64,000 nucleotides of DNA from Antedon mediterranea (lineage: Eukaryota; Animalia; Echinodermata), in assembly GCF_964355755.1 (NCBI RefSeq), contig NC_092677.1:5044101-5108100 (forward strand), read 5' to 3'. Under the pieces are notes generated by a model that was not told the DNA's origin, ran no database searches, and worked only from the letters and a program-made list of their open reading frames with translations. Both the position numbers and the translations under genes were made by a program. This document shows positions 1,684 to 49,507 of this stretch, piece by piece (the stretch's first letter is position 1; every line of letters starts with the position of its first letter).

Positions 1684-4647
1684 TTAGTCGTATAACTGTT
1701 CACAATAATGTGGTTCTGCAACCTTTTCTTTCTGTGACGTAATACAATCACGAGGCTCTTCGTAAATGACCTCTTGACTTGACGAAATAAGACTTTCGGC
1801 AGTTTTACATTCGATTTTAATCTCTTTTCTTTCCTACAAAACAAAAAGTAAAACAAAAAATAAAAACAATAGCAATAATTGATTGTTACTATTAATTGTT
1901 ATAAAACAAAATATTGTTTGTTGGTTATCAATGTATGTACCGTGTCGTAGAAAAGATGGTTTATTAGTCACTAAAAATAATAGAAATATTATATACTGGC
2001 TATATTTATTAATGTCAACATAATCTTGCCTACACTGCTGAACGATATGTTTTGTTCGGTTGCTCGTTTGCCACTTGGATGCAACGTAATGAATTGTTGA
2101 TTTTTTTTCCCGCTCTTCAGTTTGTCAAATTGAAAAAACTTCGGTGTTTATTGAGTACAACCATAGGGGAATTTCTCCATGGTATAACAATTTAAGTTTC
2201 TTTGTTAAGCAATCAAGATCAATTAAAATACTGTACACAAATTTCAAAATAAAACTTAAATAGAAAAACATTTGCGCAAAGGAACAGACATTGATGACAA
2301 GAAAAGTTTCCATTATTTCCACTTTGGTCCTGTAAAAACAGTTAACTGAACAGAGTTGTCAAAGTTGATTGTAAATCGGATTTTTCTGTTATTAACATTT
2401 TTACCTGTGTTCTTGTCCTAAATTGGCCTCTGTTGAGCTCACTGTAAACGTCCACATTGGATTGAGATTTCACTTGGCATTGAAGATTTTGATATTTTGA
2501 ATGGACTTCTCTTAATCGTCTTTGCTAAAGAAACAATTTTAATAAAAAGTATTAGTTAATTGGGCGAGTAAAGGAATGTTTATTTATCATCTTGACTTAA
2601 AACTGTAAACAAAAAGTACTTACATCAATACAACGTGCAAGAACAGAACCAAGAATGAATGCAATGATGATAGCCACAGCCACTGTACCCATTTGAAATG
2701 AATCATCTCCTGTAGAAAAAATTAACCGTTGTTTGGTTGTGAAATCATTGAAAATATTATCTTCAATACTGGGCTAAAAATGGTGAATGATCAAGTGGAA
2801 ATGTATAATTCAGACACTAAACTACTACTTGGTAAATACAGTATGGTGACTTACCTTTCAAATTGTCTGTAGGCCCATCTGTAGGCCTACCTGCTTTGGG
2901 CCTACAGTTGTCAAGTGATGTAGAGGCATTAAGTTTTTTATTCTCTGCATAACATGTAAGATTTGATTGACATATCTCATCAGTAATTTCTATAATTGCT
3001 GTACTTTCTCCTTTCTTAACCATTTCTCCATCTTGTAATATCAGTACTGATGATGGCTTGGGATGGCCATCTGCTGTACATGTTGCAAAACAATCTTCAG
3101 GATTGAATGTTGCGATAATATCTATTGAGAGAAGATAAGGCTTAAAGCTCAAGAAGATTTAGAAATATTGTTTTGAATCGATATGGGCCTAACAGCAAGA
3201 CAAATTACGCTTGTTATTGCAGATTCAGTTCATCACACGTTTATTTAGTTATGAATGTAACTGGGGCAAAGGCAGAAAAAATAATAAGGATATTCAAAAT
3301 TTAAATATTCAGAATATAGATACAGACATTTTATTTTTACAAGAAACAAAACAGTGGAACGTTTTCTAATTAATTCAACTTATCGAAAATTCAGATCACT
3401 ACCGTATTACATAAAAAACATATTTTGTATTGCCTCATATATTTAATAGTAGGCTATCATATATATATTTCTTTTTTTTCTACATACAAAATATTTCCAA
3501 CTGTTTTCCGGCACTGGTTTTAGCATCAATTCCCTTAAACTGATCACTCTCTGCTTTACATGTATAAATACCAATGTCGCCCATAGTGGCTGCTTCAATC
3601 TTAAGGACATTGCCGTTGATATTTATCTTCTGTCCATCTTTATACCAAGTAATGTAAGGAGTCGGGTCCCCATCAGGTTTACTACAAGTAAATGTGACTG
3701 TGTCACCTTCATATGCAGTGATTGCTGAGGCATTAAGACGTGGCTGATCCAAATCTGAGAAAAGGTATAAAACAAATTAGACAGCAGATAAATAAAGATG
3801 TGGTCAACACAAATTACAACAACAAGAAGTGTATAGATATGCCTTTTGGTACTCAAGAAAATGTCAATTTAATTCTGGAGTTTTACTATTGGCGTGGCGT
3901 GAGAACATTCACAATTATAGACCTTATACTATTTAGTAAAAAAACATTAAGAATGTCGGTTTATGATAGCTTTTTTTTTTCAGGCTACATCATGATTATC
4001 TGGTATACTCACAATATACAGTTAGCATAGATGGACTTAATAATGTAATCATTCCAGTTGCTGTTTGTATCTGGCATCTAAATATTCTTTGAGAATCATA
4101 TCTCAAGGGCTGTAAGATCACCAGACTAGCTTCACCAGGAGCAGTGTGTAACCGGAAACGTCCATTTTCCATCTTTTTATCATTCACAATTCCTGGGTTG
4201 ATGACTACTTCATCTTCATTTAGTTCATCCCATTGTAGTGAAGTAGGAGTAGAAGTAAATTGTGAATAATCACAAGTTATCACCACTTCTGCATCGTCTT
4301 CTTTAGCTGTCTGGTTAAAGCTCGTTTGACCATGTGCTTTAAAATATCAAGCATATCCTATTGTTTATATTTAACTAATGATAATTTAAAATTAAATGTG
4401 TCAACCTAAAAATATATATATATTCTACATACAAACAAGGAAAAGAATAAAACTGCCCTCAACCAGCTGCTGCTGTTTTTAGTTTTACGCGTTCGTAATC
4501 TGGTTATTGAAAAATAGTTCAATATTAACTGACTGACTAAAAAGTGTATGGTCGTTTAGTTGTTGATTATCATATTTAATTTATTTTTATTATCTTACCG
4601 ACTAAAGATTGTATATATACAATAAATAAAATTCGCTTCAAACCCAT
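1684..4647 (-). CDS. Gene A: type I Ig-superfamily receptor (SP-V-I/C2-C2-TM-Tyr-motif tail), ~420 aa
   Basis: Exons (minus): 4647-4599 SP (MGLKRILFIVYIQSLV), 4336-4013 V (ITC..LQW..IFRCQI), 3754-3488 I/C2 (FTC..ITWYKDG..DIGIYTC), 3121-2855 short C2, 2709-2624 TM (GTVAVAIIIAFILGSVLA), 2524-2405 tail (SKYQNL..DVYSEL), 1833-1684 last exon (EVIYEEP..HYCEQLYD*). All GT/AG with compatible phases; total 1263 nt. Confidence 0.8.
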
Positions 4648-4845
4648 CTGAAAAAAAAAAAAAATAGAGAAAAAAACTTTTTATTAATATTGGTTTACAG
4701 CATTGAGGAAATCTATGTTATTTCGTCCATGAATATATAAAGTTTATATTATCTATAATGAAATCCTCATCGTAAATAATCGTTAACAACCAACAAACTA
4801 GAACAGAAGGAGAATCTATTTCAAAAGAATAAAAGCTATTATACA

Positions 4846-4966
4846 TTCACGCTTGTTTCGTTTCACGGAACCGGAGACGGTGCCGTTCAATTCTGTATAC
4901 ATTTTCCATTGTTTTAATAACAACACGGCGCCGTCTTCCTTTCCCTGAAACGGAACAAGTGTGAAT
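4846..4966. mobile_element. Small hairpin/MITE-like element
   Basis: ATTCACGCTTGTTTCGTTTCACGGAA ... TTCCCTGAAACGGAACAAGTGTGAAT inverted ends. Confidence 0.55.
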
Positions 4967-5700: not shown

Positions 5701-6074
5701 TTAAAGATGTAGGCTATCATGTCTCCCTGGAAAAATTAATTTTAACATTTTTGTTGTTGAATATGCCATTTTAATTTCAATGTTCCATAATACTTATTCA
5801 CTTTGATCAAAAAATTTATCGGAAAAAACAATTATTTACCTGCAGAGCCTGTTATTTAAAGCAAGAAAGTAGTGAATTTGGCTGCCAGACAATAATGGGT
5901 GTTGGGTTGAATTTAACCGCGTTATGTCGTCTTTATATAAAATTATAAGTGAAAACATTATTTGTTTTCGTTTTTTTCATGCGGGTGACTTTATCAAAAC
6001 TACAAAATGGCCTATTCAAAATTTGATTTTATTAATCTTAATTTGTCATGTTTTTTGGGGTACTATACATCTTA
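5701..6074. mobile_element. Degenerate TTAA-flanked MITE (Kolobok-like)
   Basis: TTAAAGATGT... to ...GGGGTACTATACATCTTA; interior similar to the 34782 and 52748 copies. Confidence 0.6.
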
Positions 6075-7383: not shown

Positions 7384-9065
7384 ACCGATATAAATATGTT
7401 ACACATTAATAATATTGCACATTAAGTCTTGCTACCCATTATAGATATTGGGTAGCAAAACAAACAAACAAATCACAGATATAAATATGTTACACATTAA
7501 TAAAAAGGATAGTATTTTGGTATGACATGCACATAAGTGTGTGCTACCCATTATAAATATTGGGTAGCACAACTAATTACCAATATAAATATGTTACACA
7601 TTATAAAAAAAAGGATAGTATTTGGTATGGCATGCACGTATGCATGTGCTACCCATTATAGATATTGGGTAGCACAACTTATACCGATATAAATATGTTA
7701 CATATTGATAAAAAGGATAGTATTTTGGTATGAAATGCACATTAAGGCTGTGCTACCCATTATAGATATTGGTAGCACAACAAATCACAGATATAAATAT
7801 GTTACACATTATAAAAAGGATAGTATTTTTGTATGAAATTCACGTATGTATGTGCTACCCATTATAAATATTGGGTAGCACAACTAATTACCAATATAAA
7901 TATATGTTACACATTAAAAAAAAGGATAGTATTTGGTATGGCATGCACGTATGCATGTGCTACCCATTATAGATATTGGGTAGCACAACTTATACCGATA
8001 TAAATATGTTACATATTAATAAAAAAGGATAGTGTTTTGGTATGACATGCACATAAGTGTGTGCTACCCATTATACATATTGGGTAGCACAACTAATTAC
8101 TAATATAAATGTGTTACACATTAATAAAAAGGATAGTATTTGGTATTGCATGCACGTATGTATGTGCTACCTATTATAGATATTGGGTAGCACAACTTAT
8201 ACCGATATAAATATGTTACATATTAATAAAAAAGGATAGTATTTTGGTATGAAATGCACATAAGTGTGTGCTACCCATTATATTTATTGGGTAGCACAAC
8301 TAATTACTTATATAAATATGTTACATATTGATAAAAAGGATAGTATTTTGGTATGAAATGCACATAAGTGTGTGCTACCCATTATATTTATTGGGTAGCA
8401 CAACTAATTACTTATATAAATATGTTACATATTGATAAAAAGGATAGTATTTGGTATGGCATGCACGTGTGTATGTGCTACCCATTATAGATATTGGGTA
8501 GCACAACTTATACCGATATAAATATGTTACACATTAATAAAAAGGATAGTATTTGGTATGGCATGCACGTGTGTATGTGCTACCCATTATTAATATTGGG
8601 TAGCACAACTTATACAGAATGATATAAATATGTTACACATTAATAAAAAGTATAGTATTTGGTATGACATGTACATAAGCGTGTGCTACCCATTATAAAT
8701 ATTGGGTAGCACAACTTATACCGATATAAATATGTTACATATTGATTAAAAAAAAGTATAGTATTTTGGTATGAAATGCACATTAAGTCTGTGCTACCCA
8801 TTATAAATATTGGATAGCACAACTTATACCGATATACTGTAAATATGTTACACATTAATAAAAAGGATAGTATTTTGGTATGCAATGCACATTAAGTCTG
8901 TGCATGCTACCCATTATAAATATTGGGTAGCACAACTAATTGCCGAAATAAATATGTTACACATAATAAAAAGGAGAGTATTTGGTATAGCATGCACGTG
9001 TGTATGTGCTACCCATTATTAATATTGGGTAGCACAAATTATACCGATAAAAATATGTCACATAT
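7384..9065. repeat. ~105-bp minisatellite, ~16 copies, each with an internal palindrome
   Basis: GTGCTACCCA-N10-TGGGTAGCAC recurs every ~105 bp within otherwise similar units. Confidence 0.95.
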
Positions 9066-10133
9066 TCGAATAATGTGCATAAGTGTACTGTGATGTCGGA
9101 TACACATAAAGTATATAGTTTGCAGGGTAGGTCTACCATAAGGATGGATTACTATTGCCATTTGTTTCCTATTTAAACTTACTATATAATAGAATAGATA
9201 ATAGAGGAAACGATTTTTTTTATTAATTAATTTGGCTTTCTACTACTAGTACTAGTAGATAGTCAAAATAATGAAAACCCATCTAAAATTTGGTTAAGCT
9301 GCATGCAACCTTGAGAAGGTCACATTGTTGAGAACTAATTACTTATTCAGAAACATACCAAAGTAGGCGTGTCTTCTGGTGTCACTACCTTTCAGTGACA
9401 AGTTAGAAATATCAATAAACCAGAGCTAACAAGACAGATCAGGGCTAATCCTATTAAACTATACCCATGATTCGTGGGGTAGCCAATGCTCACGTTTAGC
9501 CAGGCTCCGGCCGGTAATGTGCATTATTAATGATAAGAACAATCTACACTGTATATGCTAACAAATATATAAAAACAAGAGTCACGTAATTACCCTTTTT
9601 GGCACTTCAGGCGTTCCATAACATTTTATTTTTGCAGTTCAGGGATGTTTAAAAAAAGTGGGCGTATCCGATTTCCCACATAGAAGCTCCAGTTTATTTT
9701 AGCAGAAGGAATTGAACATGTTCGGAAGAGGAGAGGTAACTATAGCCCAATTCTACTTAATTTTAAGGAGATTAGATTTAGCCTTTACAACCAGCAGCTA
9801 ACGAAATGGGGGCCAGTAGTGCTTTTGGCCTAGTTTTTAGTGGGTTTTATTTAGGCTAGTTAGAGAGTTTTAGGCTAGTTAGCTAAGCGTCTACCACCCA
9901 CGCTAATTTTGTCGGGGGAAAACCCAGAGACAGTGATTTTCATTTTGTGTGGGTTTTTTTATTGATTTGTCCAAAATTATTTTGTTTTGCAAATTGTGTT
10001 TAGCCAGACAGGGATTTCCCATAATTTTATTCTCAACTTGAAAAAATGAAATATCGGGAGGTTTAAAAAGCTATAGAGGGCGCTAAAATAATATCTCAAA
10101 CCATAGAGGGTGCTATGGAAAACCTAAAAATAT

Positions 10134-11546: not shown

Positions 11547-14500
11547 ATGCATTTACTAGTAGGTGTAGTCATATTCCTGGTTTTTACTAATGGTAAGTAC
11601 CTTGTATTTCATTTCAATACAGTTTTATACTTCATGCTTATTATGCGATTGAAAGTATCATTTTCTGTGATAGTTTCTAAGCAATATTCAAAATCCTGAA
11701 GGATGAAAGCCACACAAAAAGACAAATAAAAAAGCATAAATATATTTTCTTTACTTTAGACCTAATAATATATTCTTTCATTTTAGAGGCCCATTGCCAG
11801 TTGGTGACAACATCTGACCAGGAAGCCAATGAAGGTGATGCTGAAGTGGGGATAACTTGTGATTATTCACAATTTACTTCAACTGCACCTTATGCAATAC
11901 AATGGGATGAACTAAATGATGGTGGAGTAATTATCAACCCAGGAATTGTGAATACTAATAAGGTGCAAAGTGAACGTTTCAGGTTAGAAACTTCTCCTGG
12001 TAAAGCTAATCTGGTGATGTCACAACCGCTGAGAAAAGATTCTCAAAGAATATTTCAATGTCAGATAAAAACACTAAGTGGAGATATTCAGTTATCAAAT
12101 CCATCTATTCTAACTGTATATTGTGAGTAAAGTAGATTTAATATTCTGTTATTATACCACTATTTCTGATGTAATACAATATTGCACCTCAGTAGAAGTT
12201 AACCTTTTTAGTAGATAGAGTCCTGGAGCATCAGTTTGGTAGTAGGGGTGTGAGAGACCGAGGTGAACACATTTTAGACAATAGACCTTTAGCTGCACCT
12301 AGAAATTTCATTTAAACTTGGAATTTATTGACTTTATTTATTATTATTTTTCTGTTCTATCAATGTTTTATCTGAAAAATATAGAACACTAACAATGAAA
12401 GTGCTAAAAGTATAATGAATAAAAATATCCAATCTGCAGACAGTACTATTTTGATCTTAGATCTTGTCAGTGCAGCTCAGGTTTCACAATTATTATATAG
12501 CTTGAGCTATGTTGGATATGGTACAATGATTATGAACACAAAGAGTGCACAAACTCAACGAGCGTGAAATGAAAAATTCTATTAAATAATAAATTATTCT
12601 AACAAAAATGCATGGTGTGGATTTGAAGAGTGCTAGTCTAGAAAACAACATGCTTTTGTATATAGCAGAATGTAGAGAAGTGTAATATCTTATCTGCATA
12701 AAGAATAAATATAAATAAAAAAAATTATTTAACAACATTAATGATCTTTACTCTAGAAAATGTATTCTTAAAAAATACATTTATATTTTCTTTCTTTTGA
12801 TAATCAGACTTAAATCAACCACTTCTTGATGCCTCAGCAAGTACTGTCTATGAAGGTCAATCAGTGACCTTTACCTGTAGTAAACCTGATGGTTATCCTA
12901 TTCCTGACATTATTTGGTATAGAGATGGACAGACAGTCAACACCGACAACCCTTCTAGATATGAGATTGCAAATAGCAGTACAGAGTTAGTTCTTAAGAT
13001 TAGATCTGCTACTGATGAAGATGGTGGGAGATATACATGTAAAGCAGGAAGTGATCAGTTTAAAGGAGATGATGCTAGAACAAGTGAAGGAAAACAGTTG
13101 ATTGTAATTGGATATTGTATGTACACATTACTTTTAACATTACTATTAATAATTGTCTTGTTAAAAGTATGATTTATGTGATTTAAATTTGATTTTAGTT
13201 TTAGTTTAAATCTAGAGATAGACAGCATTAACATGAGCTAAATTTGTCTTTTTAGATATTTCCATTAATTTTACATCTGATGGTAGTTTTGCAACCTGTT
13301 CAGCAGATGGCTATCCCAGACCATTATCAGTATTGATATTACAAGATGGAGAAGTGGTTAAGAAAAGAGAAAATACAGCAACTATAGAAATTAATGATGA
13401 GATATGTCAATCAAGTCTTACCTGTAATGCAGAAAATGGAAAACTTAATCAAACAGCAGCATTAGAGAACTGTGGTCCAGGTCATACAGTATTCAAAATA
13501 CAATTATTACAAAGCTATACATACAAGTTTTAAAACAATATTTTAAGAAATTTAAAAATGATGTTATAAAATAGGTCTTCCTGGTTGATAGTATATACCA
13601 TTCACCAGAAAGAATAATACATTGCTTGAATGTTAGACCTACAGATAAAATTAATTTACATTGACATCTGAGCTGATCTTGTACTCCTTTTTCAGATATC
13701 ACTGTTGAGTTTACATCTGAAGGTGGTTTAGCGACATGTATAGCGGAGGGCCATCCCAAGCCATTATCGGTATTGATATTAAAAGATGGGGAAGTGGTTG
13801 AGAAAGAAGAAAATACAGCAACTATAAAAATAGATGACGAGATATGTCAATCAAGTCTTACATGTTTTGCAGAGAATGGAAACCTTAATGACACAGCCAC
13901 ACTGGAGAACTGTAGGCCCAAAGCTGGTAGACCTACAGATGGGCCTACAGGCAATATGAAAGGTACGTCACCATACTGTATTTACCAAGTTAGGTTAGTG
14001 ACTGAGCAATACATGTTGGTGGTATTTAGTTTAATGTAAAATGCAACCAACCATTGTTAAAAGATGATTTAATCATCGTAGTGATGTCTCAAAAGAGAAA
14101 GAAAGTTAAGAGAAAAAACAAAATGATTAAACAAATGTGTCAATATGAGTTAACAAATTAGAAAATAGTATAAAACAATGTTAATGTGTAGAAGAAAATG
14201 AATGTTAAAAGAAAATTTTTTTTGATTTTATTTATTACGTGCAATGTATTTCAATATTTTAAAAGATGATAAAATAAAAGTGGGATATACCAAGTAGATC
14301 ACCAAAATACATCAGGCCCGTAGCCAGGGGGGGTTTTTATGGTTCGGGCAAACCCCCCCTTTACAGCGAACCCCCCTTAACCGACTGCGAACCCCCATCC
14401 CCGACATGCCCAATACCTCACCCTCATCTCCAAAAATCCTCCAAATACGTGCCCCACAGTACAAAAAGTTGTTTGTAAATTGAAAAATTCGTAAACTTGT

Positions 14501-33912: not shown

Positions 33913-34228
33913 ACTGCATGACGATTGGTGTGTACTGCATGCCGATTGGTGTGTACTGCATGACCATTGATGTGTACTGCATGACGATTGGTGTGTACTG
34001 CATGACGATTGGTGTGTACTGCATGACGATTGGTGTGTACTGCATGATGTTTGGTGTGTACTGCATGACGATTGGTGTGTACTGCATGATGTTTGGTGTG
34101 TACTGCATGACGATTGGTGTGTACTGCATGACCATTGGTGTGTACTGCATGACGATTGGTGTGTACTGCATGATTATTGGTGTGTACTGCATGATAAATG
34201 TGAACTGAAGGCAGAGGAGGCGTTCCAT
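33913..34228. repeat. 21-bp tandem repeat (~13 copies) ending in a GGCGTTCCATA transposon terminus
   Basis: ACTGCATGACGATTGGTGTGT units; terminus shared with element 534-1386. Confidence 0.85.
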
Positions 34229-34324
34229 ATTCCAGAAGATTTAAAATCATCATACATTATTCTGATTGTGGTTGGTGGCAGTAGTTTGTTTATTTTTTAA
34301 TTAATTGAAGACATTTTTTTACAG

Positions 34325-37300
34325 CTATTCCAGCAGATTCATATGTTATTTTGATTGTGGTGGTGGTGGTGGTTTTTTGCCTTTTGTTTATTGTGTGGAT
34401 AATGCTTCTTGTTTGTAAGTAAAATATATTCCTGATTTTACTGAACTTAAATTCCTTATTTGAATGGCATATTTTTATTCTTTATTTCTAATTATTTTTT
34501 TTAATTAGAATTCTCACAGGCACATTTAAAAATAGAATAGAAAAATTTATAAATATATCATGAAGAAGACACAGAGGCATACATAGAACAAAAAATAAAT
34601 TTTAAAAAGAAGCCGATGGTGTAAGTACTTCTAGAGCAGTCAGAACCCAATTACAATTAATATGTTTATTTTAATTTCAAAATTTAGTCATATATATTTT
34701 TAAAAATATAAATATGTATATCAAAAGCGACATTTGGCATTGGCAACAAGTTACCAAGAAACATTTGTATGTTAGTTAGCCTTAAAGATATATTGTCCCC
34801 CTAAAAAAATATTTTTTTGTTGAATATGTTATTTTAATGTCACATAATAGTTATTCACTTTCACAAAAAATTGGGTCTGAAAAAAATTTATTTACCTGAG
34901 AAAAATGTAATTTAAAGCAAAAAATGGTCAAATTATCTGGAAGACAATGAGTTTTTGGGTAATTTAACTGTTTATTTTGTCTTTTTATAGGTGAAATAAT
35001 TTTTTTCCTCGTTTTTTTTTCTTATGGAAGTGAACAACTTCATTAAAACTGCAAAATGGCCTATTCAAAGTCCGATTTTAAAAATCTTTATTTTTCATGA
35101 TTTTGGGGGACAATATATCTTTAACATTTTCATAAATATTTAACAATTTTATAGATATTATAATTTACCTACAGTAATTATAACACACACATGAGTGTAT
35201 CCTACCAAATGGTAAAGTGATATTTGATAATGATCAAACAATCAATGATTGTTGAGGTTTTGTAAACGCAAGTTCTGTATACATTTTTAAAATTCCAACA
35301 CTGGTTTTAGTGTGCTTCCTCAACATTAGGATTTTTGTTGTTAATTCTTAGTACAATTTTTAATATGAATAATTATTAGGTTTCTTTTATAAACATTATT
35401 ACCTAAATGCTATTGCATGTTTTGTAATTTTACAACATAGTAGATGAATATTTTTTACCGTAGCTAAATTGTTTATTTTAGATTTTATGAAATGCAAGAA
35501 TATTGAGTGGAGCAATACAGATATTGATACAGTGACAGTTGAAGGTGGTGAACCAATTATAATGAGTTGGAAATACCGTCCACGTATTGCAAGGTTCAAG
35601 ACTTTTGAAATAAAGAAAGACAACAAGGTGCTTGGTTCAAATCAACAGCAATCCAGTAGTTGTAAAACAGTCTGTCAGTTTGTCTGTTATTGCTGTATTT
35701 ACTTTTGTGGATTTTTTTGTATTGAATACTGTGACAAATCATGTAAGTTATTTTTAGATTATAATTTTATCAGTCTAATACATTTTATGTTTAGTGATTG
35801 CTATATAAAGTTTTACTGTAAGAAAAGTTAATATTTACTGTAGTCTGTACATACATTCAGTATCTATATATTAATGCTACTAAATTGGTCATTGAATGGA
35901 ACAGGCTTACATTTGGCACACTCATGTTTCTTGATGAGCCGCACACGATAGGCTAAAAAAAAAGGACTTTTATCAGGGAAAAGTGCGCTTTTATACTTAC
36001 TCCTCTCATACGAATTAGTATATAATCAGATATTAAGGCAGAAAAAGACCGTGCTAACTGCTAGTATGAGATAATTATTCAATTTTAATCAAATCATTTT
36101 TATTTCATAGTTGAAAACCGCAATGAAGACCAACCGAATGCAAGCAGGTGAGTTTTATATTTGCATACTGTATTTTGATTATCATAATTGAGTACATGAC
36201 ACTTGTAATTAAACATTGAATTGATGATATAAATGTGGTGGTATATCAATGACCAAAAGTTAAAAGAAACATTTGATTGTGTTAACTACAGAAGTGAAGG
36301 CGAAGAACATGATGGTACAGCTGTTCCTCTTCTTGAATCAAATTTACCTAACCAGGCTGCAGAAACTGATGCACAACCACAGGTTGGCTATAATGTTAAT
36401 TTATGATTTAAAATGTGAACCTGAAATGGATTTTCGATTTTAAGAACTTCACAATGGTTATTTGAATGTATCCAAGTAACACATTTCAGAAATAAAAACA
36501 ACATTTTTTGAAAAAATGAAATATTAAGATACCTTGGTAAGTTAGCGAAAAATACTCCTGCCATTAAAATTTTTTATTTAAATAGAAACTGGAGCATAGC
36601 TAGGCCTACTATTCCACGCGGTGAATGATCAACGGCTGGGGAAGGTGCGTGAAACGTTGCTGCTAATAATTCATTCAATACCAAATGCTGTTGAAATGCC
36701 AGGATTATTATATTGCCCTACAATTTCCTAGGCCGTACGTACCAACTATATAGACTAGTTGATCCACCACCCATACTCGCGAGGCTCCGTTTCATGCAGC
36801 AAAAGCGATATTAAGTTGCTGATCATATGTCATTGTGTGTAGGCCTCTAGCCAAAGTAAAATGTGAATCAAATTCGTTTTTGAACTGCCTGATTCATGAC
36901 AAATAAATTATCATCTTGTATTACTATATGTCTAATTCTGCTATACTAAAATAGAACATTTTAGAAGTATAAACTACGAACAATGCACAAAAATACAGGA
37001 ACAGAAAAATATGGATACGCATCACTGCACACAGCTCTGTATCAAGGAAAATGTTACTAGGCTTATGTCAGTTTTGCCAGAAAAACCTGTTGATTTGGAG
37101 ATTTTAAATCGTCATTTACTCGATAAATATTACCGTTATCGGAAAAAAATGTAAATACATTTTTGCAATAGTACATGCATTTAAAAAAATTTATTCCATA
37201 GATTTCAAAAGTTATCAAAAATTTCATAAAACAGCATTTTGTATACAGGGATTTGTACCTCTTAGTAACACCTAATAGAACCATCATCATTGTAAAATGA

Positions 37301-40300
37301 AAAAAATCAAAAATCCATTTCAGGTCCACAATATACAGTAAACAAGACATGCTGATAGTTAGTTTTGTGATTTAGTTGGGTTTCACATTAAAAGTAAATT
37401 ATTTTACTATTATTAGAAGTACAATTTTCCTATGGTAAAGTTGGGTTTCACATTAAAAGTAAATATGCCAATATCCAGTTTTGTTACTTTTGGATGTAAC
37501 TTCTGTTGTCTCCAATTCTTTATAGTTGTTTAATTGTTAGAGCTGATTGAATTAGTATAGTCAATGATTTTACTTTACTTTTACTTCTTAAAAACATCAT
37601 GCCTTAAATTATACAAAAAGTACAATAACTCCAGTAAAAAAGAACTGCACATAGAATTTGTGAAAGTGTTTACATTATTTGAAAACACCATTCTTTAATA
37701 CAAATGTTGTCTCTTAATTGCCTTTTTTCAGACAAGTTCTGATGATAGTGAAACCAGCCCTTTAACAAAACACCAAGAAGAACAAGGTAAACTTTGACAT
37801 TCTTTATACTTTAAATGTCAAGATTCTATCAAAATGCATTCCAAAGTAAAAAAGTACAAATTCTTGTGTTTACTTTTGGCTTATTTGAGTGTACTATATT
37901 TTTTAATGTGTTTTTTTATAAACATTTTCAATTTAATGAGGGAACAGTGGCAGATCCATCCTGGCAGAGCCTGGCCCAAAAAAGTAAATTCGTCATTTGA
38001 CAACCTTTTCTTAGTGTCATTCGTTACAACACATCAGTTTTTCATATTTACCCTTCCAATAATGAGTAAGACTTAAAGAGGTAAAGAGCGCTATAATAAG
38101 TACTTTTTATATTGTTATAAAAAATCCATCTATTTGTTTTTCGTAGAGCGCCATAATATGCGACGCGCTGGATCTGCCCCTGGGGAAAACTGTATTTTAT
38201 TGAGCCAATTATTTTACTATTATTAGATAGAAGTACAATTGAATTTTCCTATGTATTAGACATAACTACAGTAAGAATTTGTTTTAACATAGGAAAGCTT
38301 TTAAATTGTTATACCTGAACTAAAATGCAATACTAAACTATGACATGTCATTTTTTGTGATTGATTGTATTTTTTTTAGTTTATATTTTATTATTCCAAT
38401 TCACAGTGTGTGTACTGTGTGGCGCTGATACAAAGGTTTATATTATATTATATAGGGTTTAATTTTAAAGTCTAATAACATTATCATAGTCCTATACCTG
38501 TTTTAAGACTGTACTATGTATTTTTTAATTTTTTGTTTGTTTATAGCAAACGACTTGAATGAAAGGTATATTGTTTTTCGATAAGATACACATATTTTGC
38601 TTACACCTATGGCTTAATGCAATGCTATTACTTTTATAATAAATGTTGATTTATTAGACAAAGTACAGTATTACATACATTACATGTGTTGTTTTCTGTA
38701 TCAAGACCATCGCTACCAGCCAATCAAAGTATAATACATGATCCAAATATAAAAACAGGGCTAGGTTCACTATCACACAAAATAATTTCCAAGTATAAAA
38801 TTCAATCTCAAATTTACATCAGTGTTCAGTATTTATACACACAAAATAATACTGATTTTTACTTTCAGTATCTTAACAAAATACATCATTATAATACGTG
38901 TCATTACGTTTTTTGCTGTGAGCATTATTTACATTCATTTTAACACACAAGCCATTTAAGGTTTTGTTTGTTAAAACTGCTTTACTCTGCATCCAAATTG
39001 GAGCTCTTCCTTTATTAACAGTTTAGCCTTAGCCTCTTAGCCTTTGAAAAAATGTATTATTAAATGCCATGATAAACTAAATATTGATTGCAACAACATT
39101 AACATGTTTACAAAATGAATATTTCAATGCTAAAAACACTTGATAGGATGATTTTTCGGCTTTAAATAGAACAGTTATGAAATGAAAAATTCTCACCATT
39201 CAACTCATATGTAGTAGTAAAAACGTATACTGTAGTGTTGTTTAAAAAATATGTCTCTGTACTCCCTCCTGATATTAAGATTACAATAATTCCCACTTAT
39301 TCATCGCAAATAACTTTACATACTCATAGCATTTTGCCTTCTAATCACTAAAGTAGTTGTTTTTGCTTTATTACACATTTTTAGCGAATATTTATTATAA
39401 ACATATAGCTGGATGCAATTTATGTTAGCAAGAGATCAATACGAAGTTTAATTGAAACACAATGCTTCTCTTTTAATGATAATTATTATTATATTGTTAT
39501 TTGTAAAGGAAATAAGTCATATTAAAACATGAATTATTTTTCTATAGAAAAGCTGTCTAAGTTTAAGATATTAGAACTCCTAACATTTTAGCAACCTCTT
39601 CCTAAACTTATTTATTTATAGTTATTTTTCTGAATAATAATTTTATGTTAATTTTTTTTTTCTCTAGATCTGAAATCTCAAGTAAGTAAACACCAATACT
39701 ATTTCCTTTTAATTTGAAAATTGCATTATGTACGTTGATTTATATTTTAGAAATGGTAAAGTTATATCGTAAGTATTATAAATATATACGTGCGGGTGTG
39801 TAATTTTACTAAATGGAAAAGTTTAAAATTGTACTATGGACGTCCAGCTTTTTGTAAACATTTGGAAAATAGAGGCTGAGATTCGTGGATCTAACCAACC
39901 ATTTAGTGTAGTGGACTCCGTCGATTCTCCTCTTCCAAAATTAAAGTGCTGCCTTTTTAAATAACCTTGTTTAATAAAACAATCAACTCATAAACGTTCA
40001 TTACTGTATTAGTTTATTATCCGTTGCTTTCTGCTTGCTTATAAATGTACAGGGTACTGTATGTTGATCAGTAAGCATAATCATGGAGGTCTCCATGGCA
40101 TATAGTATATAAAGTGTATAGCAATATGCATTTAGTGAATTAGTAATCTGTTGCATAGAAACAAAATGCATCAAATTATTTATTTAACTTTGAGCTAAAA
40201 TGTTTATTTTGTACTTTTGTTTTAGTGTCTACAAACGGTAGAGGAAGAATCAACCTAAAATTTCCAAAGCCTAAGAAATCTGATTCAGGGAAGTACAACT

Positions 40301-43300
40301 GCAGTATAGAGGGCAGTAGACAGCAGTATCCAGGTGTCAACAATATGACTGTTTATTGTGAGTTTTAGTGAATTAAATATTGTATAATTGGGAAAATATA
40401 GTTCCGCAGGAAAAATATCGTTCCCTCTGGGATTTCAATTGTTATATCACCTTTCAATGGCAATATTTGTATATTATTATAACACACCTAAAGTGTATCC
40501 TTGCAAATTGATTGGTTAATTACACATCACAAGCTGTTTGGTGCTATAGTTCTCCTAATGGAAAAGTGATATCTAATGGTGATAGGCCTGATGGTTGGAA
40601 TGCATGTTCATGTGTACAAAAAAAAATGTTCTTGTGTACAAAAAAAAAATCTTTGTGGTAGTGAACAATAGCATTCAAAGTGGAACTCAATTAGAATTAA
40701 CATTTTTGAAGAGCAATATGTACTAATTTAGACAAAAGATAATATTTATTGGTCCATTATAAAAAATGTTGGAAAGTCTTTTTCCAAATGGCGTACACAT
40801 ACAAAAATACATATAAAAATTACAAATATAAATATATAAAAAGAAAACATGTACTTAAAATAGGTGAACTGGAATATTATTCAATAAAAGTTTTTTATAA
40901 TACTGTATATATTTAATATACAGATATTGCCTGCTTAGAGGTTAAATATAAGATTTGACATCCCCGAGGAAATGATATTTTGTTCGATGTGAATAGCGAA
41001 GCGCTAATGGAAATATATTCCATCGAACAAAATACCATTCCCAAGGGGTTGTAAAATCTTATATTTTACCGATATAAAAGGCGATATCTGTTATATTACA
41101 ACAAGTAGAATATCTGCTGGGTTGGGGAGCTAGGCTAGGCCTTCTTTTTGTATTGTATGTAAACAAGCTGCCTAGACACCTTACCTTGCGATGAATAATA
41201 TACAGATCATTACTAATGATTCCTTGGCAATAAAATTAAAATATTCACTAGCCTAGGTTGTTTAAATAATAACAGAAGAATTTCCATCAATAAGCCTACA
41301 TTAATAATAATATTATTATCAGGTAGGCCGAATAAATAATAATTCGTCTTCTTCGAGCCGAATCACCGGATGTTCGCTGCATCGCGAGTGTACCGGTTAC
41401 TACTGCGAGTATTAACCAATCACAAACGGTCTTTCATCACATCTAGGGAAGACTAATAACAAATGAGGGCGCTATGTATGCATAGTTTAAATAGTTTAGT
41501 TGATTAATTTATTCAAGCATTTTCTGTGGCGCAGCGCATGCAGCGTTGTCTTGTGATGGAGTGACAATTTCATCGCAAGTTCAAGACCCAGTAGATGACT
41601 TATTATTATTATTATTATTTATCGCCAAACGCAAGTATTGCCACACGAAAATTACACAGTCAATATCATCGTACTCGAGAATTTGCTGGATTTTTTATGT
41701 TTAATGACAGGGACACGATAATTATGCGAAAATTACTCAGTCAATATCATCGTACTCAAGGATATATACGATTTACGATCCTCGCAGCGGTAGTCATGTG
41801 ATGCAGTTTCAACCAATCGCGTTCACGTATTTACATAGGCTATGTAATATATATATTACTATTAATTATTACTGAATATTAAAATTAACATTATATTATT
41901 GCACACTGATTATATAATCGTAACCTAAGACCAGAATGCATAAATATATATTTACTATGTAGTGGATGGGATTCGTCTAACATAATTGCATTTATTTTTT
42001 TCCTAACATTCTCTTCATACAGAGTGTTTGTTGTGGTAATATTACAGCTAATACATCGTTCAGCTAAGCATCTTACTTTCTCAAACTAATTTTTATTTTC
42101 TTTACTAAAATTCCCAAAAGTGCAGATTAAACAAAAATTAAGTATACTCTGGGTGACTGACCTATAAAATAATAGCATAATGGATTTGTCAAAAAACACA
42201 CTTTATAGCTTTATGTTGCCTTGCTGGCCATTTATTCAGTATGTGCATTCCAGCTTAATTGTGATTCCAAGGTAACAATATGTCACCGCCAAAGACGAAA
42301 ATCTCCGTCTTTCTATGCCCAGCGCCAGACGGAAATTTCCATCTTTGGCTTTTCATTGCACAATTTGTTAGAGCAGGTATACCGCCTATAGAAATTTCAA
42401 CATCCAAATTGATCTGTACCGCAAATATTTTGATACTTTATTAACCCTGAGTGACATTGACCCCAGCTGGCCTACATCGCGTCCTATGATCCGTAAACAA
42501 CATAATGTGCTTACTGCGGATGAAGCAATTGCAGAAATACTTGCTGAATCTGACTCTGAAAATGAGTATTTATTATCCCCAGATGATGTAGGTATATTTT
42601 TACCTAAATCTGATTTATGAACTGTAAAAAAATAATTGAAGATGATTTAGCTAGCTAGGCCTCATAGGCTAGTTTGTAGAATAGGTTGAGAATCGTATGT
42701 GTCAGTCAGTGACACTGACAGACGGTGCAGTCCAGACTAAAATCCTCATTATCTCTGCTTTGTTCTCTGATTGAGGCTAAAGTGCTAAAAGTGAGTCAAG
42801 TTCTTTGTACAGTTATGTGGTATTACAGTTTTATTTCAATAAAGTGTTTGGTACCATAGGAAAGCTTATTCCTATCTCATTATTTGAGTGTATATTACAT
42901 GTCTTTCTGATTACAAACACCTTTGCTATGAGCTAAACAGGTAAAACAGGTTAAATTAGTTAAAAAGGCTGGCGGTGAGGGGTACTTCCTTTATTAAATG
43001 CCTGGCGGTGAAAGTGTTAAATGACATTATACTATGCGAACAATTTAGGAACTGCAGGAAAACTTCATAACTGTGCTAGTTAGTTAGCAACAGGGCGGTA
43101 GACATAGTTTAGGAACAACCCCTTCATTTATTGACAATTGGAAATTTGACAAAAAATTGCAGCCATTTTGTCACAACAGTATTCAAGGACTTTGTTGGGG
43201 ACATGATCTGGACCAGATGGTTTGTTAACTTTAGGTTGCTTAAATACCCTACGAACTACATTTTCAGATATATTAATTTCCTCACACCCCTTTTTATTCA

Positions 43301-46300
43301 TTCATATCAAGGGTCAACTTTCTGTGGAGTAAACATGGCGTGTTTCATAAAAAGTTACGCGCACACACGCATTTAAAGTTTTAATATCATTCAAATTTCT
43401 GTATGTTTCAGAATATTTTTGCATTTCAACATTTCAATTTTCGTTCTGTTACGCACATGCATTTTTGCGCATAGTGACCCACCATTTATGAAAGCTAATG
43501 AGTTGTAGATAATAATAATATAATAATGCAGATTTCTAGAGCGCACTTCGCCACCAAAGGTGCTTATGGCGCTTGATTGATTGATATAATTTATTTGATT
43601 ATACATGTTACCATATTACACCCAAAAAATAAACGCCTTCCCGAATAAACTCCCTAGGGCATTTATTCGTATAAATACAGTATTTAGATCATAAAATGAA
43701 GTTACATTTTAAAATACATTCAACATTTAAGTGAATTTTAAGATTTTTTCTAGCGATAGAAACAGTTTCACAGTTTAATCTCAAAGATATTTCAATTTAT
43801 TGTTATCCTTATTATTTATTTATGTTTTTTTCTCAGGTCAGGCTATTTTGTTTTGTATTTATTTATTTAATTATCTTAGTGCAAAAAGGTGCTATTTGTT
43901 TTTATTATTATTTTTTTTTATATATATTCAGGGATTGAGATGGAAAATCCAAAGTACTCAATATACCATGGTATCAGTAATGTTGAAATGAAGTGCAGCT
44001 ATGGACCATCACATATGTCATTAACAGGTTACAAGTGGAAGAAGATTAAGGAAGATGGCACAACAGAGATTGAGGATTGTTCTAAAGATGACAGATTTGA
44101 AGTAACAAGTTACCAAAATAGCATTCTGTCTTTGAAGATAAAAAATGTTGAACTTGGTGATGTTGGGATATATCAATGTGAAGTGAAGCCAGTTGATGGA
44201 GAAATGAAGCTGAGAGATACTACAGAGCTAAAAAAATGTAATTTTTATGTTTTATTTATAATTTTAAAAGTTAATGGCCCAATTCAACATCTATGACAAT
44301 CTTTACTTTAAAAAAAGTAAGATTAACATATTTAAGAAACAAATTCTATCAATTGTGTAATTCAAAAGATGTAAATTTATATGTTTCAAGGGATTAAGAT
44401 GGAACATCCTGAGTACTCAACAGAAGAAGGAATCAGTAATGTTAAAATGAAGTGCAGATATGAACCAGCAGATATGCCAATAACAGGTTACAAGTGGAAG
44501 AAGATTAGGGAAAATGGCACAACAGAGATTGAGGATTGTTCCAAATATTCTAGATTTGAAGTAACATGTAATCAAAATAGCATTCTGTCTTTGAAGATAA
44601 AGAATGTTAAACTTAAAGATGCTGGCAAGTATCAATGTGAAGTGAAGCCAGTTGAAGGAGAACAAATACTGAAGGATACTACACAACTGACAGTTAAAAA
44701 ATGTAATTTTTATTTTATTTATCATAATAAAAAGTTAATGGCCCAATACAAAATCTAAATAACAATTGTTATTTTAAAAGGTAAGATTAACATTTTTAAA
44801 AAGCAAGATACTACACAACTGACAGTTAAAAGATGTAATTTTTATTTTATTTATAATTTTAAAAGTTAATGGGCCAATTCAACATCTATGACAATCTTTA
44901 CTTTAAAAAAAGAAAGATTAATATATTTAAGAAACAAATTCTATCAATTGTGTAATTCAAAAGATGTAAATTTATATGTTTCAAGGGATTAAGATGGAAC
45001 ATCCTGAGTACTCAATAGACCATGGTATCGCTAATTTCAAAATGAAGTGCAGCTATGGACCATCAGATATGCCATTAAAAGGTTACAAGTGGAAGAAGAT
45101 TAAGGAAGATGGCACAACAGAGGAATGTGACAAAGGTTCTAGATTTGAATTAGGCCCAACAAGCCAAGAACACAACATTCTGTCTTTGACGATAAATAAT
45201 GTTTTACTTGGTGATGCTGGCAAGTATAAATGTGAAGTTACGCTAGTTGATGGAGAACAAATACTGAAAGATACTACACAGCTGACAGTTAAAAGATGTA
45301 ATTTTTATTTTATTTATAATTTTAAAAGTTATTGGCCCAATTCAAGATCTAAATGACAATCTTTATCAAAAGTAAGATTAACATTTTTAAGAAGCAAATT
45401 CTATAAAAATTTGTGAATTCAAAATCTAAATGACAATCTTTACTTTAAAAAAATTAAGATTAACATTTTTAAGAAGCAAATTCTATACAAATTTGTGAAT
45501 TCAAAATATGTAAATTTATTTGTTTGAAGGGATTGAGATGGAACAGCCAGTGTACTCAACAGAAGGTGGTATCAGTAATTTTGAAATGAAGTGCAGATAT
45601 GGCCCATATATGCCATTAAAGTGGAAGAAGATTATGGAAGATGGCACAACAGAGATTGAGGATTGTTCTAAAGATTCTAGATTTGAAGTAACATGTAACC
45701 AAAATAACATTCTGTCTTTGAAGATAAAGAATGTTTTACTTAGTGATGCTGGCAAGTATCAATGTGTTGATGGAGAAAACATACTGAAAGATACTACAGA
45801 GCTGATAGTTGGAAAATGTAATTTTTATGTTTTATTCATAATTTTAAAAGTTAATGGCCCAATACAAAATCTAAATAACAATCGTTATTTTAAAAAGTAA
45901 GATTAACATTTTTAAGAAGCAAATTCTATCAAAATTTGTGAATTCAAAATATGTAAATTTATATGTTTGAAGGGATTAAGATGGAAAATCCTGAGTACTC
46001 AACAGAAGAAGGTATTCATGTTGAAATGAAGTGCAGCTATGGACCATCAGATATGTCATTAAAAGGTTACAAGTGGAAGAAGATTAGGGAAGATGGCACA
46101 ACAGAGATTAAGGATTGTTCCAAAGATTCTAGATTTGAAGTAACATGTAATCAAAATAGCATTCTGTCTTTGAAGATAAATGATGTTGTACTTGGTGATG
46201 CTGGCAAGTATCAATGTGAAATTACACCAGTTGATTTAGAACAAATACTGAAAGATACTACACAGCTAACAGTTAAGAAAGGTAATGTTTACATTTTATT

Positions 46301-49300
46301 TACAATTCGTCTAAAGGAGATTGGCTTAAAGATGATCACGTATTAATTGTTGGTAATTTCCATTTATAAACTCATCCTGATTGTTATATATATTATAGTG
46401 ATTTGTAGTCATCCTAATGTACCATATTTGTTTGAATAAATTCCCCGCTTTGAATAAACACGCCCCTTGAATAAACTCTGCCCATAGAACATCATTTTAA
46501 ATAAATGCCCCCTACCTCGAATAACAACAGTAACTACCCAATCAGATATCCTTAAACAGTGAGGTACAGCTCTGTGATTTTACTTAGAATTAAATACATG
46601 TTTTTCTCGCTACGGAGTGATGTAGAAGCAAGATGTCTTCAGGGAAAAAAGCTGTTATTGCAGTAATAAATCCATTTAACTAAAAGGTCCAGTAATAAAA
46701 TATTATAACGCACCTAAATAGATTCTTGTTATTCGATAAGACGAATGTGGGTCACATGGTGTTTGATAGACGCAGGCCGTAGTCAGTGGGTGGGGGGGAT
46801 GTTATGGTTCAGACGAACCCCCCTTTCACAGCAAATCTCCCCCCCCCCTTAATCTACAGCGAGCCCCCACCCACAAACAAGCTTGTCGTAAGAACTTGAA
46901 ATTAGTCTCAAATTGTTTAAAATATACATATTTACATTTAATCTAAGAACCTTAGTTAAAAGATGACTGGAAATATCATTACAGAACAACATACCTCCAC
47001 AAAAACATGTCATACTTGATACTTGATATAAAAGGTATCCAAGACAACTACAATATACCACTACATTGTTTACATGAATCATCATTCCATATGACACTGT
47101 TGCATAATATTTTTGAATGTCACCTACATATTTATTCGAATAAGCCCCCCTCGATTTAAACTTCCTCAAATAAATTCCCTGCCTCATGCACATTTACACA
47201 ATATTGTATCACAACACACTTCATTGACTGCCATAATCTACAATTTACCAAGCATTTTGATACAATTTTATCACATTTTGATAGTGGGTATCAAATAAAC
47301 ATCCCCTCCCCATCCCACTTAAAAACCCTTATGAACAATAAATATGATAATCTAAATTTTGTTTAGTACTGTGCACGTACTATACAATATAGGAACACTC
47401 TACGTGTGGCGCAGTGTGTTGGACTTTGGATTACTGATAATGAGATTGTGGTTCGAATCCAACTCTCGCCGCATTGCTTGTATCCTTAGACAAGACACAC
47501 CCAGGTGTATAAAATGGGTACTGGGTTAGATCAAGACACAACTTTGCACTGATTACTAGCTGCACTATGGGAGTATGTTTGATCCAAAAAATGACCGCGG
47601 TAATAATGTTCAGCGCATTGAGTGCTTGTTTATGCGCTATATAATAATGAACTATTATTATTATAACATTTAGTGACAGCAATGTTTCAAAATCTTTCTA
47701 TTCAGTCCTAAAAATGTCTTCCCCAATTACCCAAGACTGGGCTCAAGACACTAGACCAGATTAATGAATGTCTATAGGATAAGTTGTGGAGAGATATGTT
47801 TTTTGTTTGAAACATTAAAAATAGTATTTCCGGTCATCTTTGAACCAATGTTCTATTAAAAATGTAAATATGTATATTTCGAACAATTTGATACCAAATT
47901 TAAGTTTCTACGACCAGTACTTACAGAGATACAGTATGAAGATGCCCTGGTATGTGGGTCAAAGGTCAGAAATGACATTTCTGATCATTTTTGACTAAAA
48001 TGCCACATTACACTGAATATGAATGTATACCTTCTGATCAATTTGAGACCAAAATTACCTCACTGTGATCAGTGGTTTTCGAGATTTAAGGACATATTGG
48101 TGTTTGAACTTATAACCTTTCACCCTGACCTTTTGACCTTTCACCACATTTTCAAAATGTGTAACCAAGCTAAAAATGATTGCTTGACAACCCTAAACTA
48201 ATGTCTGAAGTCAAATTCTCTGGACCTCAAAGTGCATACGAAAGTTGATCTAGCTACTATAGAACGTCTGAGAGCCTATAAACATAAAAAATAAAATTTT
48301 AAAAATTGAAGACTTAATGTTCTTAAAAAAATCACATAACTGTTCTTTATTTAAATGTCAATTTAAACTATTATTGGTTGAAGGTTATTTGTAATTTCTT
48401 TTATTATTGATATATTTGGATTCATCTTAAATAATTTATATAATCTATACTTAAATTATGTGTTAGAGAAAACATGTTAGCATTAAAAAAAAATCTTCAT
48501 TATTATATGAAGTCTGTTGTTGTGTTTGGAGTTCCTAATTTTGTAATATTATTTATATTTTTGTTTTGAGGAGTCTATTCACTATAAGCTATGCTTTCAT
48601 TAATAGACTAAGTTATTAGTAAAGTGAAATGAAATGATTCCACCCAGAAGTTTTGACCCCTTAATTTTGTAATATCACTGAAAACGGTTTGTCAGTCTGA
48701 CCCCGGGGTTGAGTCTAGCCTCCCGACCCCTTGAAAACCCCCCAAAAACGGGTTATTTCACCACATTTCACCCATGGACCAAAATTGGTACAAACATAGT
48801 AGTGTGTCAGTACATAACAAAAACTGACAAAATATCTGGTCGGAAAGGTTATGTCAGCCTCCGTTATGACATTGAGGATTTGAAGCCAGTTTAGCTATTG
48901 TAAATATCTTACTCTGAGATCACAAGTGTTATCTTCTAGGCATCTTGGTTCATACCACAGCCAATAGTACCAATTTATTTGTATTATATAAAATTATTGT
49001 TATTATTATGGAATTAACAATATTAAAACCATTTTGTTTAAAACATTGATTGTTTAATAATTGTATAAAAAAGTCCTCTTTAGTCTTTGTGTGAAAGTAT
49101 AGGGGAATGTTATGTTTATTTTTATAATTTGCATTAAAAATGGCATTGTCTCTTTTTTTTGTTTAATAGATGCAATAGAAATGAATATTCCTAATGTTAC
49201 TGCCAACTGTTCTACCGAAGCAAAATTGGCCTTAAACCTTACATGGCACGAAGATTCTACTAAAAGTAAAATAGAAAGAGTCACATGGTGTAAGGGTGAT

Positions 49301-49507
49301 AAACCATTGCTAATGAAAGTTCCTCAACCAAAATTTCCACGCTATAGATGTGAGGAAAAGAGCAAAAATGTTATATATCTGCATTTCAGGAATGTTCAAC
49401 CTAAATTTGAAGCAGAATACAAATGTGAAGTGAAAGTTGAAGGAAGACAGAAAATATATAAAAGTTCTGGATGGTTAAAAGTTATTGCTCCTCAATCTTC
49501 ACGGTAA
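34325..49507 (+). CDS. Gene D: paralog of gene B's TM/post-TM region with 5 tandem Ig exons; 5' end not found (truncated gene or recent pseudogene)
   Basis: Exons 34325-34414 (TM), 35482-35742, 36111-36147, 36292-36382, 37732-37786, 38547-38565, 39668-39681, 40226-40357, 43932-44237, 44391-44702, 44986-45297, 45530-45817, 45973-46281, 49170-49507. Same order and phases as gene B, with no in-frame stops. Confidence 0.6.
34782..35124. mobile_element. TTAA-flanked MITE (Kolobok-like)
   Basis: TTAA-AGATATATTGTCCCCC ... GGGGGACAATATATCT-TTAA. Confidence 0.8.
36415..37329. mobile_element. ~0.9-kb TIR element
   Basis: GTGAACCTGAAATGGATTTTCGATTTT ... AAAATCAAAAATCCATTTCAGGTCCAC. Confidence 0.65.
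42283..43020 (+). mobile_element. piggyBac-like non-autonomous remnant
   Basis: TCACCGCCA... left end and ...TGGCGGTGAAAGTG-TTAA right end. Internal MIRKQHNVLTADEAIAEILAESDSENE resembles the acidic N-terminus of piggyBac transposases. Confidence 0.45.
43932..46281 (+). repeat. Tandem array of five Ig exon+intron units (~450-600 bp period)
   Basis: Five similar ORFs GI(E/K)ME..MKC.Y.P...KWKKI...DxGxYxC with conserved introns; partial duplicate at ~44806-44880. Confidence 0.9.
47403..47663 (+). mobile_element. tRNA-derived SINE
   Basis: A-box TGGCGCAGTGTG, B-box GGTTCGAATCC, core CCCAGGTGTATAAAATGGGTAC, (ATT)n tail. Confidence 0.7.

Follow-up and report, generated by a model that had tools for sequence, protein, structure and literature searches.

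A 64,000-nucleotide stretch of the genome of the feather star Antedon mediterranea (NCBI RefSeq assembly GCF_964355755.1, contig NC_092677.1, positions 5,044,101 to 5,108,100), referred to here as the window, carries four genes for putative cell-surface receptors. By composition the DNA is AT-rich animal DNA. Gene models were assembled exon by exon from genomic coordinates, and all 54 modelled exons are open and joined at GT-AG junctions only, leaving the four models without internal stops. Their order is A(-) B(+) C(-) D(+):

4647..1684 (-), gene A, 7 exons, 420 amino acids
11547..27882 (+), gene B, 25 exons, 1499 amino acids
32923..29488 (-), gene C, 8 exons, 437 amino acids; end of the terminal exon uncertain
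34325..49507 (+), gene D, 14 exons, 853 amino acids

The initial annotation of this DNA had described the same arrangement, and had interpreted it as a duplicated head-to-head cassette of paired immune receptors, each pair consisting of a short gene with an ITAM (immunoreceptor tyrosine-based activation motif) and a long gene. It also held that A and C share their exon structure and a tyrosine-rich tail, and that A, B, and C share an ectodomain composed of V-, I-, and C2-type immunoglobulin (Ig) domains. The four open models bear out the arrangement, and the shared features are likewise upheld: A and C agree in exon phase, their tyrosine exons are homologous, and the V, I, and C2 exons of A, B, and C are homologous. 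The duplicated cassette was rejected. The A-B and C-D spacers are unrelated (local alignment scores of 35 and 40 versus shuffled maxima of 34 and 33), D is truncated and has no ectodomain, and the ectodomains of A and C (58.4% identical) are less alike than either is to that of B (A-B, 65.0%; C-B, 64.3%). Therefore, the locus does not consist of two copies of a single cassette.

Short genes and a mosaic ectodomain

Genes A and C have the same architecture, in which a signal sequence, V, I, and C2 domains, and a transmembrane (TM) segment are followed by homologous tails.

4647-4599 (-), gene A signal
4336-4013 (-), gene A V
3754-3488 (-), gene A I
3121-2855 (-), gene A C2
2709-2624 (-), gene A TM
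2524-2405 (-), gene A tyrosine tail exon, YxxL-x12-YxxL
1833-1684 (-), gene A last exon, YxxP
32923-32918 (-), gene C start
32447-32408 (-), gene C signal
32127-31810 (-), gene C V
31584-31288 (-), gene C I
30857-30627 (-), gene C C2, degenerate, both cysteines lost
30288-30215 (-), gene C TM
30062-29895 (-), gene C ITAM exon, YxxL-x8-YxxI
29667-29488 (-), gene C last exon

Under the definition YxxL/I x6-9 YxxL/I, taken from the available text of a study of Hydractinia Alr proteins (10.1101/2022.03.04.482883), only C carries a canonical ITAM, and the description of the short genes as ITAM-type thus holds for C and fails for A. The C and A motifs arose in 1.9% and 1.5%, respectively, of 10,000 tail shuffles. 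This chance rate makes the motif match modest evidence, and the flanking (outer) tyrosines retained between the A and C tails at a synonymous divergence (dS) of ~0.77 appear to give better support.

Contigs other than those of the window in sequencing runs X2 and X3 match parts of the TM (30201-30288) and ITAM (29954-30066) exons of C, which suggests that further putative ITAM-type genes lie elsewhere in the genome. In run X3 (DNA), the depth of exact-match contigs is 295-318 over C versus 540-770 over B, where depth is not copy number, and a 2030-base contig, ~10% diverged and either an allele or a paralog, tracks the 5' part of C. These data hint that C may differ between haplotypes, and the X3 sample may be the assembly's own.

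The relationships among the ectodomains change from exon to exon. In the V exon, dS is 0.24 for A-B, 0.47 for A-C, and 0.58 for B-C; in the I exon, the corresponding values are 0.54, 0.72, and 0.15. Informative sites favor A with B in V and C2, B with C in I, and A with C never, and the site patterns are incongruent across exons (p=3.9e-5; third positions of three sequences). Moreover, A and B have the 3' end of C2 and ~50 adjoining intron bases in common. This conflict in dS and site patterns indicates that the ectodomain exons form a mosaic and have apparently moved between short and long genes, either by gene conversion or by shuffling from other paralogs, both of which fit the pattern. The donors of the exchanged exons cannot be named because the V, I, and C2 protein trees are mostly unresolved.

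V is the more variable domain and, between close paralogs, diverges faster than the tail. Gene B and its relative P0165, a single RefSeq model that runs from V through the sialidase-like domain and is 89.8% identical to B, share 79.5% identity in V versus 92.7% after the TM segment, and non-sister paralogs are 56-73% identical in V versus 65-84% in I. The V and I cores have the canonical Cys-Trp-Cys pattern, the third domain is C2-like, and domain searches of the receptor proteins gave no Fn3 match. For C, P0003, and P0006, the ectodomain shows sequon enrichment. A feature of Siglecs is a V-set domain with a sialic-acid-binding arginine on strand F. Directly after the F-strand cysteine, Gln or Glu is found in all 12 V domains compared, as judged by eye in an alignment that holds no Siglec.

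The long tail and its pseudo-enzyme

Gene B encodes ~1075 residues after its TM segment, arranged as the N-terminal half of an Ig domain, a Cys-rich segment, an acidic linker, the C-terminal Ig half, four further Ig domains, and a propeller of the Pfam family BNR_2.

11547-11592 (+), gene B signal
11787-12122 (+), gene B V
12808-13116 (+), gene B I
13256-13480 (+), gene B C2a, weak donor
13696-13962 (+), gene B C2b
15791-15877 (+), gene B TM exon, hydropathy 3.13
16224-16484 (+), gene B split Ig N-half and Cys-rich hydrophobic segment
16733-16772, 16935-17106 (YxxM), 17492-17576, 19447-19465, 20116-20132 (+), gene B small linker exons
20392-20523 (+), gene B split Ig C-half
20929-21240, 21653-21973, 23819-24337, 24482-24796 (+), four V-set-like Ig exons of gene B
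25231-25273, 25415-25564, 25800-25969, 26114-26188 (+), gene B propeller exons 1-4
26415-26486, 26626-26714, 27302-27442, 27586-27882 (+), gene B propeller exons 5-8

Two RefSeq models are identical to the B model across their overlapping parts. P0008 (XP_071958912) matches the first 305 amino acids and reads through the C2a donor, and P0013 (XP_071957667) matches from its own residue 12 onward. The Cys-rich exon matches an A. mediterranea protein at NCBI at 100%, P0014 links V-I-C2-C2-TM at 96% identity, and P0002, P0003, and P0006 are complete, all as annotation models. The acidic linker carries EEYQMM, a YxxM sequence. YxxM is a binding motif for PI3K. A 24-bp coding repeat of ~9 copies (23977-24188), Ser/Pro/Thr-rich and retained in P0165, lies within the third tail Ig exon of B and is a possible phosphorylation array. 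The sole match in a plasmid search is the proline-rich repeat, and a PDB profile search with the whole long proteins returned Ig proteins only among the best 60 of 224 matches.

The two Ig halves of the tail behave as parts of one domain. When compared with a profile made from intact tail Ig domains of the receptor family, they align to opposite ends of it in all seven proteins, and they score higher when joined; the N-half outscored all 100 shuffles in six of the seven. If the two halves are one Ig domain, both must lie on the same side of the membrane, and the Cys-rich segment between them (19 hydrophobic residues with seven cysteines within or around it) is a looped-out anchor. In the P0165 model, this segment is absent and one hydrophobic window is seen; P0165 and P0009 place homologous Ig domains behind a single TM segment and have no Cys segment, and the TM segment of P0009 has a basic flank. 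None of the eight long proteins in which the TM segment could be called shows sequon enrichment downstream of it, a count that excludes P0016, whose TM segment was mis-assigned. The grouping of the propeller with a crinoid sialidase-3-like protein, described below, also favors a tail inside the cell. We infer that the tail of B is likely cytoplasmic and held at the membrane by its Cys-rich segment, which would be lipid-modified and loop out of the first Ig domain.

The propeller is a BNR_2 domain (E=5.8e-21 on P0013, above the cut-off; atlas score 0.95) whose sequence has a YRxP motif of the Y/FRIP class and Asp boxes, as do NEU5/sialidase-3-like enzymes in the available text of PMC3431349. 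That text gives six essential sialidase residues, namely an Arg triad, a Tyr/Glu pair, and an Asp acid/base. The corresponding columns were set by motif context on P0033, an intact Antedon sialidase-3-like protein in which all six are present. In all nine family domains, five of the six (two Arg, Tyr, Glu, and Asp) are lost and the first Arg is kept, and the domain differs further from NEU5 in being fused behind Ig arrays on a receptor. An active sialidase was rejected on this basis. B and P0165 also carry a 21-residue propeller insertion across an intron (26415-26714), which is absent from P0002, P0003, and P0006.

A search of 1.84 billion representative sequences yielded 412 matches with E<=0.001, and the 10 below 1e-30 are all from Antedon or another crinoid, Anneissia japonica. 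Two Anneissia proteins (P0022 and P0026) have Ig domains ahead of the same propeller, and P0026 begins within the C-terminal half of the split Ig domain; both look like partial models, and only the Ig and propeller part was read there, with no ectodomain seen. Because it occurs in two crinoid species, the tail module appears to be old and maintained. In a quick tree with 19 outgroup sequences hand-picked from 150 listed, the family propellers form one clade (support 100) that is sister to P0033 (97, long branch). Their neighbors are deuterostome sialidase-2/3/4-like proteins, including those of a hemichordate, amphioxus, and a brittle star, a group that we assigned to NEU5 as presented in the available part of PMC3431349. 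A bacterial origin was rejected given this grouping with deuterostome enzymes, and the propeller is a pseudo-enzyme that derives from a sialidase of the animal itself.

Gene D is built from the same tail:

33913-34194, 21-bp tandem array where the ectodomain of D would be expected
~34229-34300 (+), partial duplicate of a TM exon, also where the ectodomain would be expected
34325-34414 (+), gene D TM
35482-35742 (+), gene D Cys-rich half-Ig
between 35742 and 40226 (+), five linker exons of gene D
40226-40357 (+), gene D half-Ig
43932-46281 (+), five tandem Ig exons of gene D
49170-49507 (+), gene D last Ig exon, ends in stop

A tblastn search with seven full-length paralogs gave no match at 32200-34300 or past 49600; therefore, none of the signal, V, I, C2, or sialidase exons is present in D. 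The long post-TM architecture proposed for B and D is real and extends to their TM, Cys-rich, small linker, half-Ig, and Ig exons. The proposal had missed the split Ig and the dead sialidase, the latter of which B alone of the four genes possesses, and had taken D for a full long receptor when it is a tail that starts at the TM exon. The five tandem Ig copies of D contain no stop, versus 7.2 expected under a neutral model whose substitution spectrum was drawn from the surviving copies (0 of 3000 runs), and their length differences are all multiples of three. Thus, D either is still translated or was so until recently. It is probably a long gene whose frame was kept open by selection for some time before the ectodomain exons were lost. 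The idea that the ectodomain of C is that of D in inverted orientation was rejected for want of flanking inverted repeats, a result that does not strictly rule it out.

A wider family and its counterparts

Related receptors lie on one 28.6 Mb contig and carry at least four types of tail:

P0002, P0003, P0006, P0165: Ig array and sialidase-like domain
P0005: linker isoform with two motifs of the ITIM (immunoreceptor tyrosine-based inhibitory motif) consensus
P0009: Ig array and TRADD-like_N/DED module (atlas score 0.85, a lead only)
P0011: short acidic tail
P0008, P0010: ectodomain with no tail

P0009 probably ends in a TRADD-like_N/DED module, which Pfam did not match in this protein. Family members also occur on contigs of 36.2 and 39.0 Mb: P0007/P0016 (XP_071947494) and P0020 (XP_071944339). 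The ectodomain of P0007 consists of V alone, and the protein does not end in a sialidase-like domain. Searching with the V domain of B recovered 9 proteins from 85 candidates, all from Antedon and none an Alr protein, by a word-based method that misses distant relatives. The nine do not include A or C, both of which are predicted genes.

Several known systems resemble the locus in part, as far as the available passages of the corresponding papers describe them. Hydractinia Alr (10.1101/2022.03.04.482883) also comprises clustered V-I genes with ITAMs in an ITAM/ITIM family. Alr proteins, in contrast, have an Fn3-like region and Ig domains without disulfide or tryptophan, whereas here the V and I cores are canonical, Fn3 is not found, and tails carry Ig arrays and a dead enzyme. 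The paired receptors Siglec-11/16 (PMC5701461) and CEACAM1/3 (PMC5112662) combine a common ectodomain family with opposite tyrosine motifs and exon exchange, and Siglec-11/16 provide a case of ectodomain gene conversion between members (PMC5701461). Compared with these vertebrate receptors, the ectodomains within the window pairs are only ~65% identical, and the long partner lacks an ITIM in its linker and extends for ~1075 residues beyond the TM segment. The fester/FcoR genes of Botryllus (10.1101/2024.10.16.618699) form head-to-head FF/FcoR pairs, an analog of the pairing here, in variable clusters with tyrosine motifs and with presence/absence variation, which is merely hinted at in Antedon. 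Fester is Sushi-domain based and pairs two co-expressed gene types, whereas this locus uses one Ig ectodomain family. Finally, the TRADD-N/DED expansions of marine invertebrates (PMC8195603) are immune architectures specific to their lineages that join a constant module to variable effectors, and P0009 appears to end alike; a V-I-C2 receptor with a sialidase-like tail is not described in those passages. The listings of the literature searched, outside of which most subscription journals fall, hold no account of this receptor family or of any receptor that ends in a dead sialidase.

Probable immune receptors and rival readings

We consider it moderately probable, from the sequence evidence, that these genes belong to a family of immune (self/non-self) receptors of crinoids, with one V-I-C2 ectodomain joined to swappable tails that would give different outputs, and that they are part of a larger cluster. 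What survives of the paired-receptor idea is one ectodomain family on divergent signaling tails, with mosaic exchange, a fast V domain, and ITIM-like and death-effector-like paralogs. The pairs as such fare less well, as they are not cassette copies and D has no ectodomain. A-B and C-D are apparently not textbook paired receptors. The family would work like a paired-receptor or Alr-type one, but membership in either fails on the features compared: the window holds no ITIM partner, ectodomain identity is ~65%, and an Fn3 region is lacking.

In such a family, the fast-evolving V domain would bind a ligand of microbial origin or one on a cell surface. The tyrosines of A and C would serve to recruit a kinase of the Syk/Shark type and so activate a response such as phagocytosis. 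The cytoplasmic tail of B would act as a modulating scaffold, with YxxM for PI3K and the propeller as a noncatalytic binding platform, and the ITIM-like motifs of the paralog isoform P0005 would be part of the modulating outputs. A bolder version, unlikely and drawn by analogy with plant NLRs, is a mix-and-match system in which a recombining ectodomain meets interchangeable cytoplasmic effectors (ITAM, ITIM/YxxM, or death-effector), the intracellular Ig arrays and dead sialidase of the long receptors serve as integrated decoys or sensors, and D is an ectodomain-less helper driven from the promoter of C. If the immune reading is right, ITAM-bearing, exon-swapping clusters of Ig-superfamily receptors reach echinoderms, between cnidarian Alr and tunicate FcoR, and the window offers a concrete locus for ITAM/ITIM self/non-self signaling in a solitary invertebrate deuterostome. 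The surprise would be the end of this type I receptor, where a split Ig held at the membrane is followed by an Ig array and a pseudo-sialidase.

A number of observations weigh against an immune-receptor family. The tyrosine motif of A is spaced by 12, outside the 6-9 range, and the ectodomains within the window pairs are only 64-65% identical. The initial annotation proposed dN/dS in the V exons as a check; the values are 0.39-0.91, no interval excludes 1 from above, and the claim that positive selection is demonstrated was rejected. For inhibitory partners with a cytoplasmic ITIM, B and D do not qualify, as they match the ITIM consensus only at the border of the TM segment, within the Cys segment, or in folded domains. 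Neither gene has a linker ITIM, and the ITIM insert of P0005 has no match in the introns of B or D. No YxxM occurs in D, P0002, P0016, or P0009, and sequons are not enriched in the ectodomain of A or B. The gene structures rest on genomic DNA and annotation models rather than transcripts; run X1, guessed to be RNA, covers introns and repeats and shows no splice joints among the matches listed. Its coverage is close to nil over the unique parts of C and thin over the introns of B, a gap that carries no weight as evidence. RefSeq cuts B into P0008 and P0013 at the weak C2a donor, although the models P0165, P0014, P0002, P0003, and P0006 speak for a single gene, and no database protein corresponding to A, C, or D was recovered, which is weak evidence. 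Lastly, in a structure model of P0004 built from 10 sequences, V and I are resolved and the split Ig is not (predicted local distance difference test, pLDDT, <50); a single-sequence fold of P0006 is unusable (mean pLDDT 33).

An unlikely alternative is a lineage-specific adhesion or developmental family of JAM/nectin/CTX-like proteins, with ordinary Src/PI3K motifs and a mosaic produced by tandem duplication. RefSeq names some members JAM-like or neogenin-like, several dN/dS values fall below 1, and a fold search with the P0004 model returned generic Ig adhesion proteins, including Necl-4. Those solved Ig proteins share only 12-22% identity with it, and the V-domain matches recovered by the word-based search, which misses distant relatives, are confined to Antedon, so orthology to a known adhesion family, which the initial annotation had named as a finding that would refute it, is not indicated. 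The joining of ITAM, ITIM-like, and death-effector-like tails to a single kind of ectodomain is also typical of immune expansions, as the available part of PMC8195603 describes them. It is rather improbable that the Cys segment instead makes a second membrane pass, placing the Ig array and dead sialidase outside as a sialic-acid-sensing lectin module, a Siglec-like role derived from an enzyme. The segment's hydropathy (1.75-2.0 over 19 residues in all seven carriers) would suffice for a second TM helix, several tail Ig domains retain both canonical cysteines, and echinoderms use diverse sialic acids according to the available text of PMC3431349. However, such a pass would put the two Ig halves on opposite sides of the membrane, basic residues flank the segment at both ends, the P0165 model does without it, and of the three arginines that bind the carboxylate only one is left.

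Feather stars are solitary, which, with the differences from Alr in Fn3 and Ig cores, speaks against an allorecognition or gamete-recognition locus whose polymorphic V domains bind like alleles as Alr1/Alr2 do. The clustered V-I genes with ITAMs, C at about half the contig depth of B, and the ~10%-diverged contig as a haplotype hint would suit such a locus, but alleles and paralogs are not told apart in these data, and we judge it very unlikely. We see just as little likelihood that the window is partly the decaying edge of a cluster, with A, C, and D as silent remnants and B split into a secreted piece and a tail. D without 5' exons, the cysteines lost from the C2 domain of C, the weak C2a donor with the RefSeq split, and dN/dS near 1 in the B-D tail exons would all follow from decay; the intact frames of every modelled exon and of the Ig copies of D would not.

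The window also carries several repeats. A 104-bp satellite array of ~15 copies occupies 7416-9066 in the A-B spacer, and a hairpin-like element with mirrored 14-bp arrays lies just downstream of gene A (540-1380). An interspersed repeat of ~330 bases occurs in three copies (5720-6073, 34782-35129, and 52748-53072). At 60122-61633 and 62491-64000, an inverted repeat of 1512 bases with 99.87% identity and an 857-base spacer reaches the window end, and is either a foldback duplication that took place very recently or an artifact of the assembly. Before it, at 58020-59751, lies a remnant of a reverse transcriptase (RVT_1) of the long interspersed nuclear element type, broken by a stop and a frameshift.

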